From IMG/VR virus record IMGVR_UViG_3300045988_041255, positions 1 to 38,402 of that record: DNA of 38,402 bases, one strand, 5' to 3'. Below, piece by piece: positions 1,367 to 29,861 of this stretch. Both the position numbers and the translations under genes were made by a program. This stretch comes from a virus. A model generated the notes under the pieces. That model saw only the letters and a list, made by a program, of their open reading frames with translations. It was not told the origin of the DNA and searched no databases. Numbering within the stretch: the first letter of the stretch is position 1; every line of letters begins with the position of its first letter.

Positions 1367-1410
1367 GCGCGTCCCGCCCTCCGGGCTTATCCTATGCCCG
1401 GCTCACCCAT

Positions 1411-1484
1411 TGGTTGGGCTGGCAGGTGTCGAACCTGCTATCTGGGAGTCAAAGTCCCATGCCTTACCGTTTGGCTACAGCCCA
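1411..1484 (-). tRNA. tRNA-Gln, anticodon UUG, CCA encoded
   Basis: Hand-folded cloverleaf: TGGGCTG TA GCC AAACGGTAA GGC A TGGGA CTTTGAC TCCCA GATA GCAGG TTCGACA CCTGC CAGCCCA A CCA. Same architecture as bacterial tRNA-Gln. Confidence 0.9.
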
Positions 1485-1587
1485 ACAAAACCCCCGCATG
1501 GTACGCATTGTGAAGAGGCGTGCGGGGGCCGCCTGCCGCGAACTCCCGCCTGCGTCCAGGTGGGATATTTTAGCGGGTCATCGGCTT

Positions 1588-1663
1588 TGGAGCCGTCAGG
1601 GGGACTCGAACCCTCGGCCTGCTGTTTACAAGGCAGCCGCTCTACCAACTGAGCTATGACGGC
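1588..1663 (-). tRNA. tRNA-Thr, anticodon UGU, CCA encoded
   Basis: GCCGTCA TA GCTC AGTTGGTA GAGC G GCTGC CTTGTAA ACAGC AGGCC GAGGG TTCGAGT CCCCC TGACGGC T CCA. One C-A mismatch in the anticodon stem and one A-C mismatch in the T stem. Confidence 0.85.
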
Positions 1664-11825: not shown

Positions 11826-12118
11826 TGCCATAGATATGGCAGAAAGGAAGTGAGGTCGGCCTTGACCAAACTTTTGATTATGCCCGTTCCAGACTAAAGA
11901 AATTGCGTAACGCGTATGGCTATACGGCAGTCCCAAAGCTGCCAAAGGTTACGGCAAGTCTACAGAATTGCAAGTTCGTTTTGCAAGCAGCGGATGCGCA
12001 TTGCACAAAGGACCGTGTACGTGCCCACCCACATTGGGAGGTTCCGCTGCTGCAAACTTGTTCTGGTAAAAAACTTTGGGAGAAGGCTATCTACTAACGG
12101 ACAGTAGATAGCTTTTTT
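11826..12118 (+). ncRNA. Candidate ~290-nt structured noncoding RNA of the immunity region (class unknown)
   Basis: Bounded by the 11791 promoter and the 12086-12118 terminator. The only ORFs lack an RBS or run into the terminator. A 12-bp long-range stem pairs 11981-93 with 12044-55. Several local hairpins. Confidence 0.5.
12086..12118 (+). terminator. Rho-independent terminator
   Basis: GCTATCTACT-aacggac-AGTAGATAGC followed by TTTTTT. Perfect 10-bp stem. Confidence 0.85.
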
Positions 12119-23954: not shown

Positions 23955-24965
23955 TCACCCCATTACCGTTAAAATTGGGTCGCCGATTGTAAGCCCAATC
24001 GACGTGCTTTGCTGGTCTTGCGCATAGGTCATTCCGGTGATCCTCGCCTTGAATTTGACCCTGTGCCGTTGCGAAACGCACCACACAAGGTCTCCGATAT
24101 CATACGCCACGCCCAGCTCGCTTGCATCTGCGCTCAGGTTAAAGCTTTGCCTGTTCCGGTGGCTGCCCAACTGTAAAGCGGCATACGTTTGCACCCGGCG
24201 GGCGAAGTCACTATTGGACTCAGTTTTACCCTGCGGATCGCCGCTAAACTCGGCCCACAGCTCGCGCCGGTTTTCTCCGGTTTCTTGCCCGGCCGTTGCA
24301 ATGCATTTGCTCCCGTCCGCATACTGCGCCGTGCAGTAGCACACGTTTTTGTAGCTGCTCACGTCCTGGTCAATCACCAGCTGCGCAGCCGTGCCACGCT
24401 CTGCGACAAAAGAGACCGCTTTCAGCCCGCTGGTGCGGTCACCACCCTTGTAGATTTCCCACGTGATGGTCTTTGCCTTGTAGTCAAAAACCGCCCGCTG
24501 GCCTAAATCCGCGTCGGACAGAATTTTTTGCACAGCCGCAAGCAGCTCTTCACCGTAAATTGTCGTTGCGCTGGTGGTCTCCGTCAGCCCCTTTTCGGCA
24601 GCGAGAAGGATGGGCAACCCTCGCAGATTTGCCTTTACAGCCGCGTAAATGTCTTTTTCGACATTTGTCACATTGCACGCCGTTGCAGCCACACGCCGGT
24701 TCAGCCGGTTGTTGAGCGTAAAGCCGTTGAGTGTGATTTGATTATTTTCGTCATCAAACTGCACTTCGGCCACTTCAAACGCCAACTTCCGCTCCACAAG
24801 ATACACAATAGCATCATTTTTTGCGATGGAGATGTTGTAAGCGTCCATCGGCAGCACAATGGTAAATTTTCCCACATCGTTATATTTGACGCTAAATTGC
24901 ACGCTGATTGCGTGTGTGATCTCGTGGCGGTTGCTCAAATCTGGCTCAAAGATTTCGATTCTCAT
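23955..24965 (-). CDS. Tail-associated / baseplate protein in the Tal position (Gp37-like N-terminus, from memory)
   Basis: 336 aa with an ATGA overlap with Dit. Called from position downstream of TMP-Dit. Confidence 0.45.
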   Translation of the reverse strand: MRIEIFEPDLSNRHEITHAISVQFSVKYNDVGKFTIVLPMDAYNISIAKNDAIVYLVERKLAFEVAEVQFDDENNQITLNGFTLNNRLNRRVAATACNVTNVEKDIYAAVKANLRGLPILLAAEKGLTETTSATTIYGEELLAAVQKILSDADLGQRAVFDYKAKTITWEIYKGGDRTSGLKAVSFVAERGTAAQLVIDQDVSSYKNVCYCTAQYADGSKCIATAGQETGENRRELWAEFSGDPQGKTESNSDFARRVQTYAALQLGSHRNRQSFNLSADASELGVAYDIGDLVWCVSQRHRVKFKARITGMTYAQDQQSTSIGLTIGDPILTVMG

Positions 24966-25816
24966 ACAACCGTTACACCCGCGCTTTCTTCGGAAAATTC
25001 CACCGCCATTTCAACATTTGCAAGCCCTGCATCGGCTGTAGGCTTCCACGCATTTCCACCGGTGTGAATCCGGAAAAGGTCGCTTTCCAGCGTCAGCGCG
25101 CCCCGGCAGTCGCCGTCCACGCTGGAAGTCACATATGTGCGGTCGTGCGTCACCTCGATTGTCACGCGCTCGTCTTTTACCAGCGTTTTCTCCAGCCGCA
25201 AAAACTCGCCCGTCTCCATGTTCTCCACGCCCACATTTTTAGCAGTCTCACCCAGGCAAGTGATGGTCAGCGTGTACGGCACATCGAACTGGCCGAAGTT
25301 TTGCAGCACGATGTATTGCAGCACCATAATCGCGCCGAATTGATATTTTTTGCTCATATTCCACGGGAACCGGAACTTTTTTTCGATGCCGCGCAGCTGA
25401 CTGCTCTTACTCTCGGCGCTGCCCCAGTAGGGATAGGGAGCGGTTAGGCCCACCTGAAAAGGCGCTCCAAAAGCGGCCGCCCCGATTGTGGGGGATGCCG
25501 TGACGGCCACCGCGATGTGCCAATCTCCGGCGTACAGAGTACCGGACAAGTCCGGGCGAATCACCGTCACAAGCGCGTTTTTAAGCTCCTGCGAGTTGTC
25601 GCCCACCACCTTGCCGTTGATCGTGATAGGGCGCGGCTGAATGCTCTTGCTTTGGACGGTTGCACCCACTTGCCCGATGCCCTGTGCGGTGTTGACGTTG
25701 ACAGAGAGGGTGTCCACGCCAGACGGCAGGCTGATTAGATAGCCGTGCGCATAGTCAAAGACAATCTCCTGCCCCAACTCGTTGACGTATCGAAAAGTTT
25801 TGCTCAAAAAGCTCAT
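24962..25816 (-). CDS. Distal tail protein (Dit)
   Basis: ATG 25816 overlaps the TMP stop (ATGA). Called from position and about 284 aa. Confidence 0.6.
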   Translation of the reverse strand: MSFLSKTFRYVNELGQEIVFDYAHGYLISLPSGVDTLSVNVNTAQGIGQVGATVQSKSIQPRPITINGKVVGDNSQELKNALVTVIRPDLSGTLYAGDWHIAVAVTASPTIGAAAFGAPFQVGLTAPYPYWGSAESKSSQLRGIEKKFRFPWNMSKKYQFGAIMVLQYIVLQNFGQFDVPYTLTITCLGETAKNVGVENMETGEFLRLEKTLVKDERVTIEVTHDRTYVTSSVDGDCRGALTLESDLFRIHTGGNAWKPTADAGLANVEMAVEFSEESAGVTVV

Positions 25817-27730
25817 GCCAGCGCCCACCTCGCTCTTTGGAATGCGGCAGCAGTGGAAGCCGCCAGCTCAACGGGGCTTTGCTTTGCCGCATAGATTGTC
25901 TGCTGCACGGTAAAGCCACCGCCGCCGAAAGCGCCGCGCCGGTAGTTTTCAGCCTCTTGCGCAGTCAGCACCATTTCGCCCCGGTGCAAATTTGCAACAT
26001 AGTTGTTATACGGTACGTAGTCAAGGCCGCCAGCGTGGCTGCCATCTGCGCCGCCCTCAACTTTAATGTCGCTTTTTTTGATGGTAAAAATATTTTTCAG
26101 GCCGTCCCAAAGGCCGCTGACGAACTTTTTCAGGCCATCCCAGGCGGCGGAAATGCCGTCTTTAATGCCCTGCACGATGTCACCGCCGACGGACGTAAAG
26201 AAGTCAAAAACGCCCGCGAAAACGTCGCAAATATCTTGCCAGAGACCCATGAAGAAGTCTTTCCACGTAGCGAAAATGCCCATGATTGCATCCCAAGCGC
26301 CCTGAAAATCACCAGACAGTACGGCCTGAACGACCGAGAAAATGCCCGCGATGGTGTTCCAAATTGTCGAAAAGAAAGACGTTGCAACGCTCCAAATTGT
26401 AGAGACAAAAGTCCATGCAAGCTGGAACTGTGCCCCAATCACGCCGACAACGGTACGCACTAGAACCCCAATTACATTAAAAAGCCCGGTGAAGAACGGC
26501 TCAACGCCGCTCCAAATTGTCTGGATCAGGCTCCAGGCGCTCTCAAAGGCGTTGCCGATTGCTTTGACTGCCGGTTTTGCGTTTTCCACCACGTCCGAAA
26601 TCGCGTTTTTGATGAATTCCATCGCGGCCTGCAAGTACGGCTGCACCGCGTCCACCACGCCCTGAACCTTTTCCCAGATTTGGGATACCATGTTATTCAC
26701 AAAATCGCGGAATTTCTCGTTTTTGGCATACAAAACAGCAAGTGCCGCGATAACTGCCGCAATGCCTATCACAATTAAAGTAATAGGATTTGCGGACAAT
26801 GCCGCATTGAATGCGGTTTGTGCTTTTGTTGCTGCCGTCTGTGCAAGCTCCATAAGTGTGATTTTGCCGGTAAGCAGTCCGGCCACAACTTCGGATGCTT
26901 TCAGAGTGCCGTTCAAGGCGGCTTGCGCTACTTCGGCGTCAGTTGACCCTTGCGAAAACAGCGTGACTGCAAGTTTTGCCTCGTCAAACTTTGTTGCAAG
27001 GTCTTGCAGCTTTTTGCCGATTTCCCATCCTTTTGCAGCAACTCCAACAGTCGCAATCAGCGGCGCAAGGTCGGCAATCACGGGGCCGATGTCTTTGGCA
27101 GCATTTTTCACTTCGTCGAACACATCAAGCAAAAACGAAAAGTCAGAATCCTGAATTGCGCTTGTGATTGCGTCCAGAATTGCATCACCCAAAAAAGCGA
27201 AGGTGTCCGACACGATAGGCTGCAAAGACGTTGCGACAGTTCCAAGCCCATCAAAAAGGGCGTGTAGGCCGTCCTCGATTGTAGGCTCTAGCTCTTTAAT
27301 TGCCTCGCTTACATATGGGGCAAGCTGCGTCACAAGCCCGGAAATGCCCTCAACCAGCGTCGGAACAATCTCCTGAATTCGCGGCACAATATTTTTTCCA
27401 GCTGCAATGACACTCTCCACGAGGTTGTCAACGGACTCGCCGACATCTTGCTCAGGGTCGGCGATTGCGACAAGCATATTTTCCCACGCCGCCCGCATGG
27501 AGGCCGTGCTCCCCTGAATCGTCGTTGATGCCTCTTTGCTTGTAGTGCCCAAAATCCCCATATTGGCCTGCACCACGTGGATAGCAGATACAATGTTAGA
27601 GTATGACAAGCTGGAGCCGTCCACCGTTACGCCAAGCTCTTTTTGCACATCTGTAAGCGTGGATGCCTCTTTCACAAGGCGCTCCATTTCGGTTTTTGTG
27701 CCACCATAGCCTAGCTTTAGGTTGTCTAAC
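25813..27730 (-). CDS. Tape measure protein, exon 2
   Basis: The reading frame stays open upstream of the M at 27687, giving (M)LDNLKLGYGGTKTEMERLVKEA... The first G (27730) completes the split ATG codon. Ala/Gly/Val-rich helical repeats and a C-terminal GGLDYVPYNNY. Confidence 0.8.
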
Positions 27731-28007
27731 CATTTTCACCCTCGGTTTCCCGATACTTTTTAGGGGATTAGACTATATCTTCAACTATTTGAAATAGTTG
27801 GTGGGCACTTCCAACGGCGTACCAATAGCCGATGTACTCGGTGACGAGCCGATAGTCGTTACACCTTCCTCTTTCGAGGCTTGGCACGGGATAGTCATAG
27901 GCTTACGCCCTTAGATTTCCCCCGTTAGCAGGTTTTCACCCACACCCTTGGTAAGGTTCACCCACGCTCACTGCGCAATCACTCACGCAGCGGACATTAG
28001 ATTGTTT
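27731..28007 (-). ncRNA. Group I self-splicing intron (IA-like, no ORF), 277 nt, inside the tape measure gene
   Basis: 5' exon ends in U (28008) and the intron ends in G (27731). R-like GTAACGACTATC and S-like AAGATATAGTC elements form P7 (GACTA 27853-57 / TAGTC 27771-75). GNRA hairpins CCTC-GAAA-GAGG and GGC-GTAA-GCC. P8-like hairpin CAACTAT-TTCA-AATAGTTG. Confidence 0.75.
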
Positions 28008-28645
28008 ATCGTATAGTTTTGCTTCGCAAAGCCATTATATGCATCCTGTATGGACTGCATATTGGTGCCCATTTTGTTTGCATTATCGGCCATATCGGTG
28101 ATAGCGATATTTGCCATATCAGCGGCCTTTTTTGTGTCGCCGCCCAAGCTGGACACCAGAGCCGCCGCGAAGGATGTGGCTGTATCCATGTATTCATTCA
28201 TGGACATTCCGACGTTTTTATAAGCGTCCGCCGCATCGTTCCACACCTTGCGCGACCCGGCGGTCAGGTCGCTCCACTCCATAAGCACTTCGTCAGTGGT
28301 TTTCCCGGCTGCCTTCGCAAAGTCCTCAAGCGACAGCTGAGTTTCGGAGTACAGCGTCTCGACGCCTCCCACAAGCTGCTCATAATTTCCATAGCTATCA
28401 AGCGATGCTTTGCCGATTGCAAGCGCCGTGCTGGTAGCCTTCTTGCCGATATCTACAAACCCGTTCGCAACATTGCGCAAGCCGTCGCTGACCGCGTTTC
28501 CCAGCACTGTGCCGGTAAAAACGTCCATAAAGGATGAAAGCCCCTTCTTCGACTTTGCAAGCCCCTGCTCGTACTCGTTGGCGTCAAGCGAAATCTTCGC
28601 GCAAAGGTTAAATACGTCCAATTCCTCACCCCTTTTCCCCTGCAT
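28008..28645 (-). CDS. Tape measure protein, exon 1. The start is uncertain: ATG 28645 or TTG 28621.
   Basis: ...IQDAYNGFAKQNYT then AT|. Splicing to 27730 restores the conserved ...AKQNYTMLDNLKLGYGGTK... Exons sum to 2556 nt, which is 852 codons in frame. Confidence 0.75.
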
Positions 28646-28937
28646 CACGCAGCTTTTTGCGCATATTATCAATGATTTCATCCGCTGTGCGGGTTTCTTC
28701 CGGTGCGGGGTGAATCATATCATAGTAGCGGGCTGGGCGTTCGCCACCCTGCTGCATAGCCGTGATAAAGCTCAAAGCCGTGTCCGTGAGATAAACGCGG
28801 AAGAGGATTTCGTCCATATCCGCCTTTATCACGTGCGGCAGCGCCGACACAAGGGCATGTGCCCTCAGTTTCGGCAGCTTTGTCAGGGCCGGGATTACTC
28901 GCTCTGCGCCTCCGCACTGCGCAACGACGCGAAAAAA
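28626..28937 (-). CDS. Tail assembly chaperone T segment, expressed as a G-T fusion by -1 frameshift
   Basis: The -1 frame stays open from the slippery site to the stop at 28626. Lies directly upstream of the TMP. Confidence 0.7.
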   Translation of the reverse strand, partial: FFRVVAQCGGAERVIPALTKLPKLRAHALVSALPHVIKADMDEILFRVYLTDTALSFITAMQQGGERPARYYDMIHPAPEETRTADEIIDNMRKKLRDAGEKG

Positions 28938-29282: not shown

Positions 29283-29861
29283 TTACTCACTTGCATCAAG
29301 ACTGTAAAAAACCATCGGCATGGTGTCCTGCGCGTCAATGGAGACGTGGCCGGTCAGCTCAACAGACAGCTGGCCCTTGCCGTTTTTGGTCGTTTGCAGG
29401 CTAAAACCGCCGGTGGACAGTGCATTTTTGATCTGGATGGCCACACAGCCGCCGTCTGCGCGGTCGCCCACCCACCACAGGTCTGTAAAGTCAGCCTGTT
29501 TCAGGTCGCGGCGGGGGGTCACGATGTCATCCTTGCTGGCGGTGGTGGCGCTGATGTCAGCAGCACCCAGAGCCAGCTTGATAGCATTCGCGCTCAGGCC
29601 CAGGCTGGTAAAGGACATCTTGCACTCCCAGCTGTCCAGATGCTTCAATTCCTTCATGTTGACCGGGCAGTTGTCCACGTCCTCGCCCAGGTCGCTGTAG
29701 GTGGGCACACAAGTGGCGTTGATGCCGCCTGTGGTTGCGCAGATGATGTCCTCGTCAGCGGGTGCAGCGGGGGTTGCAGGAGTGAACTTCTTCAGCAGCA
29801 CGCCCGCATCCAGCTGCAGTCCCTCGAAGGTGTCCTGCGGGATTACGGTAAATTTACCCAT
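29283..29861 (-). CDS. Major tail protein
   Basis: 192 aa. Called from position and beta-rich composition. RBS TGAGGTG. Confidence 0.65.
   Translation of the reverse strand: MGKFTVIPQDTFEGLQLDAGVLLKKFTPATPAAPADEDIICATTGGINATCVPTYSDLGEDVDNCPVNMKELKHLDSWECKMSFTSLGLSANAIKLALGAADISATTASKDDIVTPRRDLKQADFTDLWWVGDRADGGCVAIQIKNALSTGGFSLQTTKNGKGQLSVELTGHVSIDAQDTMPMVFYSLDASE

Follow-up and report, generated by a model that had tools for sequence, protein, structure and literature searches.

Why does the tape measure protein (TMP) gene of this virus appear as two separate ORFs? In the window, by which we mean the whole stretch of 38,402 nucleotides analysed, the ORF listing holds two minus-strand TMP ORFs, 27983..28681 and 25813..27687. 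A sequence-only reading of the window had taken them for parts of one gene split by a 277-nt group I intron with its junction at 28008/27730. The ORF coordinates proved exact, the coordinates of the insert and the sequence quotes were correct, and the reading frame is restored at this junction. We consider it very probable that a genuine phage IA-type group I intron, which lacks a homing-endonuclease gene, interrupts the TMP gene of a siphovirus-like phage or prophage.

Exons, junction and host gene

TMP exon 1 (28008..28621, minus strand) ends with ...AAA CAA AAC TAT ACG AT; the final U, U28008, is that of the 5′ splice site. Unspliced, the exon 1 frame reads ...FAKQNYT and then INNLMSAA, followed by a stop codon. 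Exon 2 (25813..27730, minus strand, with the stop codon at 25815-25813) opens with G TTA GAC, and the frame of the second ORF is open upstream as far as this G|TTA GAC at 27730. Excision of 28007..27731 joins ...ACGAT to GTTAGAC... and gives exactly one uninterrupted ORF, which reads ...AKQNYTMLDNLKLGYGGTKTEMERL..., i.e. ...AKQNYT-M-LDNLKLGYGGTKTEMERL.... The predicted junction in the spliced RNA is ...AACUAUACGAU|GUUAGACAAC..., which can also be written AAAACTATACGATGTTAGACAACC. Counted from the ATG at 28681, where the ORF mechanically starts, the two exons have 864 codons with the stop counted, and not 852, as had been stated earlier. It is likely that the true start is the TTG at 28621-28619, because the resulting MDVFNL... 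beginning matches that of homologues, and the protein would then have 843 aa. The stop codon of the upstream gene lies 5 nt before this TTG, with a GGGG/GAGG purine run adjoining.

The host gene is the TMP gene, as had been proposed. Specifically, the spliced protein matches PHROG 58 (phrog_58, tail length tape measure protein) with an E-value of 7e-79, as a single match from aa 42 to aa 763 across the junction. A Pfam search of the spliced TMP gave no tape-measure domain, with weak coiled-coil-like matches only. The gene stands where a TMP gene is placed by its neighbours: the order is major tail protein (29283-29861), two small ORFs, TMP and Dit (24962-25828), and the neighbouring tail genes are intact.

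With a 232-aa query spanning the splice point, 4240 homologues were found. The motif ...QNYTMLDNLK[L/I]GYGG... is unbroken in every one of the best 120 of these 4240 (120/120). Among the matches listed, the closest homologue (P0001, locus L363) comes from an intron-less DNA allele in which ...AACTATACTAT|GCTCGACAAT... is contiguous, and 57 of the 60 nt immediately upstream of the junction are identical to those of the window. The sequence of the intron-less target site is AACTATACGATGTTAGACAAC. The alignment with intron-less homologues, suggested before as a check, bears the junction out in protein and in DNA, and we regard its position as established. Moreover, in the annotated phage genomes that have this TMP family the gene is read through in one piece in 364 of 379 records; about 15 do not read through. 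The records nearest to the window are phage contigs from human faeces. The intron sits inside the most conserved motif of the gene, QNYT-M-LDNLKLGYGG.

It could be argued that the gene is truly in pieces, i.e. that two separate TMP fragments are made and assemble without RNA splicing, as the fragments of a split ribonucleotide reductase reportedly do. GenBank records of related phages carry two 'tapemeasure protein' CDS, and an ATG is present at 27687, which would suit this explanation. However, this ATG is part of a conserved motif, TKTEMERL, and nothing resembling a Shine-Dalgarno sequence precedes it. Conservation of the exon 2 frame extends all the way to the splice site. The polypeptide is single across the junction in the same best 120 homologues, and the 277-nt spacer is a covarying ribozyme fold (see below). 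Two assembling fragments are in our opinion extremely unlikely.

Predicted fold of the intron RNA

The ORF-less intron occupies 27731..28007 on the minus strand (277 nt), starts with AAAC and ends with ...AAAAUG, where the omega-G is 27731. A default Rfam scan of the whole window reported no intron. In a permissive scan, Intron_gpI (RF00028) is matched at 27751-27997 (minus strand) over the full-length model (1-253) with 29.8 bits (E-values 9.4e-6 local and 6.6e-4 at whole-window scale), which is below the curated gathering threshold of 50 bits. The same-site homologues L278/L319 reach 52.9 bits and are above it. The covariance-model check that had been proposed thus gave a divided answer, positive in the full-length match and in the score of the homologues and negative in that of the window copy. 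The low score of the latter looks like a problem of model fit and does not appear to be evidence against group I membership. Rfam mis-aligns P3 onto non-pairing bases because two hairpins are inserted before J3/4, and these extra hairpins plausibly account for the missing bits.

Because the default scan was silent, some other element was considered as well, be it a group II intron, an IS/MITE or IStron, a translational bypass element or an assembly chimera; nothing specific points to any of them. Against all of these, Intron_gpI is the only Rfam family that matches at the intron position, the ends of the insert show no terminal inverted repeats or target duplication, and equal architecture at an equal site recurs in many independent contigs and isolated phages. 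To our knowledge, 277 nt far exceeds the known translational bypass gaps. We give such elements practically no credence and describe the insert as a group I intron.

The internal guide UCUAAU-GUC (27993..28001, minus strand, as are all elements below) consists of a P1 part, GUC, and a P10 part, UCUAAU. In P1, GUC 27995-27993 pairs with exon GAU 28010-28008, and the wobble pair U28008.G27995 stands at the splice site. P1 can be written as GAU-A with U-GUC, that is three exon pairs and one intron pair, and is short; its exon pairs (U.G flanked by A-U and G-C) are invariant in 14/14 same-site introns. P10 is formed by UCUAAU 28001-27996 with GUUAGA 27730-27725 of the 3′ exon and is supported by both covariation and RNAalifold: pairing is seen in 94% of its cells, and two of its pairs have changed in both partners. 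At locus L309 the 3′ exon is altered to GCUCGA and the guide, CGAGA, has changed to match, a compensatory event within P10. P2 (27969..27992) is a 10-bp hairpin with a GUGA tetraloop and compensatory changes in 9 of its 10 pairs.

The two strands of P3 are GUGGGUG (27959..27965) and UGCCCAC (27801..27807). All cells (100%) are paired, and Watson-Crick covariation is seen: one position has four different pair types and a second position has two. The P3 aligned by Rfam, AACCUGCU with GUGCCCA, has non-canonical pairs and was rejected in favour of 27965-27959, whose covariation with the P3 3′ strand is perfect. After the P3 5′ strand come two hairpins within 27928..27956, provisionally named P3.1 (27956-27946) and P3.2 (27943-27928, GAAA loop), both of which show compensatory changes. 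J3/4, taken here as UAA (27927-27925), follows directly after P3.2. Two hairpins between P3 and J3/4 depart from the textbook group I layout; the same arrangement before J3/4 is present in a non-TMP relative (L346). Another possible partner of the P3 3′ strand is an invariant GGUGUG between P3.1 and P3.2 (27946-27941).

P4-P5-P5a (GUAA loop) and P6-P6a (GAAA loop) take up 27863..27924, which Rfam aligns to P4-P6 of the Intron_gpI model; compensatory changes are found in P4, P5, P5a and P6a. The P7 5′ strand GACUAU (27852..27857), part of the R-like element GUAACGACUAUC, pairs with AUAGUC 27776-27771, and this pairing is invariant in 14/14 same-site sequences. The S-like element AAGAUAUAGUC (27771..27781), which comprises J8/7 and the P7 3′ strand, matches phage introns in sequence. 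A pair of hairpins, P7.1 (27848-27837) and P7.2 (27833-27813), fills 27813..27848 between P7 and the P3 3′ strand, with compensatory changes in 6/6 pairs of P7.2 and one-sided changes only in P7.1. Hairpins at this place mark subgroup IA in the Michel-Westhof classification. P8 (27782..27800) is an 8-bp hairpin with compensatory changes in 7/8 pairs. In the P9 region (27739..27766), CCC...GGG surrounds a UCGG-GAAA-CCGA hairpin whose inner pairs are compensatory (4/4). All helices are paired in the window copy, the conserved core is present (P3-P8, P4-P6, the P3/P7 pseudoknot, the R-like and S-like elements as P7), and its strands follow one another in canonical order. The folding z-score of the intron is −3.6.

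Much of this architecture had been foreseen in the sequence-only reading. The U before the 5′ splice site and the terminal G, both invariant in same-site introns, the P8-like hairpin and the extra hairpins after P7 as in IA introns are all there; so are the R-like and S-like elements, given as GTAACGACTATC and AAGATATAGTC, whose GACUAU and AUAGUC pair as P7. The GNRA-capped hairpins had been undercounted as two: there are five GNRA tetraloops, in P2 (GUGA), hairpin B (GAAA), P5a (GUAA), P6a (GAAA) and P9 (GAAA).

Covariation was assessed in an alignment (A1) of 14 distinct same-site introns, from which the P8-loop ORF inserts had been excised and to which 10 nt of exon were left on each side. 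In A1 96.8% of cells are paired (84.4% shuffled, 34–42% with partners slid) and 43 of 83 pairs have changed on both sides (23.6 ± 2.5 shuffled, 6–13 slid); the structure was partly derived from A1 itself, which inflates the percentage of paired cells and, to a lesser degree, the count of double changes. A covariation score of 0.407 was obtained, as compared to 0.04–0.09 with partners slid. Covariation is seen at nearly every pair of P2, P7.2, P8 and the P9 hairpin. P1, P6 and P7 are invariant and covariation is therefore uninformative there, P6 and P7 being fully paired. The U at −1, its G partner and the terminal G do not vary in the aligned introns. RNAalifold, which worked without knowledge of the written structure and is unable to predict the P7 pseudoknot, independently recovers P10, P2, P3, both extra hairpins, P4-P6a, P7.2, P8 and P9.

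The steps of group I splicing are taken from established chemistry. In the window, the late tail operon would be transcribed through the intron and the RNA would fold so that guide GUC and exon GAU form P1, which places U28008.G27995 at the splice site. A guanosine from outside, bound by P7, would attack after U28008. Guide UCUAAU would then pair with GUUAGA of exon 2 as P10, the terminal G27731 would enter the G site, and ligation of the exons would yield the mRNA for the 843-aa TMP. Ribosomes on unspliced RNA are expected to halt 8 codons into the intron. From the fold we infer that the RNA is catalytically active and is spliced in vivo.

If the intron were instead a decayed, inactive remnant in a defective prophage, TMP would be a pseudogene in two pieces. 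The Rfam score under the cut-off, the missing endonuclease gene and the weak P1 are compatible with decay. A remnant would not be expected, however, to keep both exons intact and in frame over 843 codons, to lie among intact tail genes, and to have a ribozyme which is 98% identical to that of locus L003 and in which every helix is paired, the core helices that vary covarying and the others being invariant. Decay is in our view very unlikely, and an active intron is the reading we follow below.

Same-site relatives and mobility

In a blastn search of phage genomes, two isolated phages proved to have an intron at this codon position, namely Lactococcus phage 38502 (KX160204) and Streptococcus phage Str-PAP-1 (KP208803); that of phage 38502 has 77.5% identity over 87% of the window intron. 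Two pattern scans of IMG/VR gave about 20 further same-site introns. In same-site introns the preceding exon ends with ...TAYACGAU, the intron ends with G, and the following exon begins with G[U/C]U[A/G/C]GA. Scans of genome and metagenome contigs with the 14-mer TAATGTCCGCTGCG gave 240 loci and, by nhmmer, no real homologue among them; a 14-mer is too short a pattern for collections of such size.

The introns of phages 38502 and Str-PAP-1 have the insertion point (...TAY ACG AT | G TTR GAY AAY...) in common with the window. Their ribozymes are 74–78% identical to that of the window and have the same P1/P10 guide, P2-P9 and P7.1/P7.2. Both are about 860 nt long, and their P8 loops contain homologous HNH_3+NUMOD4 ORFs that read in the sense direction and extend with their last codons into P8/P7, whereas the window intron has 277 nt and is ORF-less. 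As had been stated, it contains no homing endonuclease ORF: several stops stand in each of its three sense frames. In the records of both phages, two TMP CDS are annotated along with an 'endonuclease', but no intron is, nor is one mentioned in the publication on phage 38502 (PMC5301393).

The intron of locus L003 is identical to that of the window at 272 of 277 positions across the ribozyme part. It has a 545-nt insert in the P8 loop, at intron position 217, in which an HNH_3 + NUMOD4 protein is encoded antisense to the intron. The HNH_3+NUMOD4 genes in P8 are thus found in opposite orientations (L003 1830-2654 as compared to L001 2995-3859 and L002 2986-3845), which suggests independent insertions. 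Other same-site copies are short (269–321 nt) or intermediate (539 nt). This range of lengths is what would be expected if the endonuclease gene has been gained, has decayed and has been lost repeatedly.

DNA similarity between the window and L003 is confined to 28146-27676, that is the intron with about 140 nt of exon 1 and about 50–55 nt of exon 2; outside this segment the tail module gives no alignment. Because the similarity is limited to the intron and its short flanks, we read the intron as a mobile island that would be common to diverged phages. Near-identity to the HNH-carrying intron of L003 implies that an endonuclease gene was gained or lost recently and that the intron may have spread between diverged phages by homing or recombination. 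To judge by its sequence, the window intron is a non-autonomous form, which would be unable to home by itself.

The TMP motif QNYTMLDNLKLGYGG (15 codons; window 28020-27700) contains at least three intron insertion sites within 22 nt: after ...ACGAT, as in the window, after ...ATGTTGGAT (L260) and after ...AAACTCGGT (L275, L288, L289, L315, L342). Introns at all three sites have a common P6-P7 core. Twin group I introns around a 22-nt micro-exon (GTTAGATAACCTTAAACTCGGT) are present in L278 (7300-8120, minus strand), L319, L343, L325 (1876-2386, minus strand) and L347/L281/L302. Of the second introns, that of L325 reaches 53 bits with Rfam Intron_gpI and that of L278 has an HNH-like ORF inside.

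In Str-PAP-1 (L002) there is a second TMP interruption at 1950-2990, about 1 kb upstream of the shared site and after ...DNSNKMG. It holds a 206-aa ORF annotated as 'endonuclease' and is probably another intron. In L293 and L356, related introns lie at the homologous codon position of a different TMP family (...AKGNFTM|..DNLGVAMN...), which suggests that the intron lineage may follow a short conserved motif across TMP families.

Known tape measure introns and other RNAs of the window

TMP had been taken not to be a usual host for an intron, which is contradicted by two earlier studies (PMC2504315, PMC10448857). Tourasse and Kolsto (2008) described the group I introns TMP-IVS1/2/3 in TMP genes of Bacillus cereus-group prophages and discussed the adaptation of P1/P10 to the target site (PMC2504315). 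Like the window intron, these belong to subgroup IA (IA1/IA2) and stand at conserved sites in TMP genes of Firmicutes prophages, and several of them are without a complete endonuclease gene, as is the window copy (PMC2504315). Their host genes encode a different TMP family of more than 1200 aa. Bacillus records were matched by the window intron in the generic 3′ core only. A blastn search of plasmids with the intron, aimed at TMP-IVS3b of pBWB404, matched only the generic 3′ core of about 50 nt.

In Vibrio phage ICP1 the TMP gene is divided into four exons by three introns, as demonstrated by RNA-seq and RT-PCR, and TMP has been termed a 'frequently interrupted gene' (Barth et al. 2023, PMC10448857). 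By description, the ICP1 introns resemble those discussed here in that some are empty and some have HNH-3 genes varying between isolates (PMC10448857). Unlike the window, ICP1 has a Gram-negative host and three introns in one gene. TMP group I introns are thus already on record, and the window intron is one more example and not a new kind.

Over about 50 nt, the window intron's 3′ core has about 90% identity to introns in phage genes of Staphylococcus, Enterococcus, Listeria and Bacillus (299 phage records by blastn). In the split terminase gene of the phage Romulus, a 'group I intron protein' is annotated beside the match. Phage IA introns (T4 td; Staphylococcus Twort-like; Enterococcus, Listeria and Bacillus terL, nrd and pol) share P7.1/P7.2 with the window, and the J8/7-P7 element AAGAUAUAGUCUAAUC is nearly identical in them and in the window intron. 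In T4 td, a GUGA-capped P2 follows directly after the guide sequence, as it does in the window. The family of the window intron differs from the other phage IA introns in its host gene, in the two extra hairpins between P3 and J3/4 and, for the window copy, in having no ORF.

The specific lineage and site appear to be undescribed in the literature. One could go further and propose a widespread, undescribed IA lineage that targets TMP genes of Firmicutes phages, with a multi-site hot spot, twin introns around a 22-nt micro-exon, P8 endonuclease genes in both orientations and a non-canonical domain possibly affecting splicing kinetics; we hold this broader proposal to be rather unlikely. If the extra domain or stacked introns did slow or regulate splicing, they could time or limit the supply of TMP during tail assembly.

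Regarding annotation, TMP genes of this family have been deposited as two CDS and a stray 'endonuclease' (38502, Str-PAP-1), and the ORF-less form of the intron escapes the default Rfam thresholds. Since the TMP is annotated as split and Rfam misses the intron, tail-length predictions and protein clustering will be wrong unless the intron is removed. The locus is also one more example of what may be a selfish ribozyme, lodged where an essential late gene is most conserved and passed between phages that are unrelated in other respects.

Some other RNAs are present in the window. A cluster at 1370-1663 (minus strand) contains two tRNAs (1414-1484 and 1591-1663) and, between them, an abiF RNA motif (1491-1527, minus strand) with 40 bits at a cut-off of 37. 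Beside a tRNA there is a sub-threshold match to D12-methyl RNA (1370-1412, minus strand; 42 bits, cut-off 57). A FuFi-1 RNA (RF02986) is matched at full length with 114 bits at 11905-12117 (plus strand) and has an insertion of about 48 nt in one hairpin loop.
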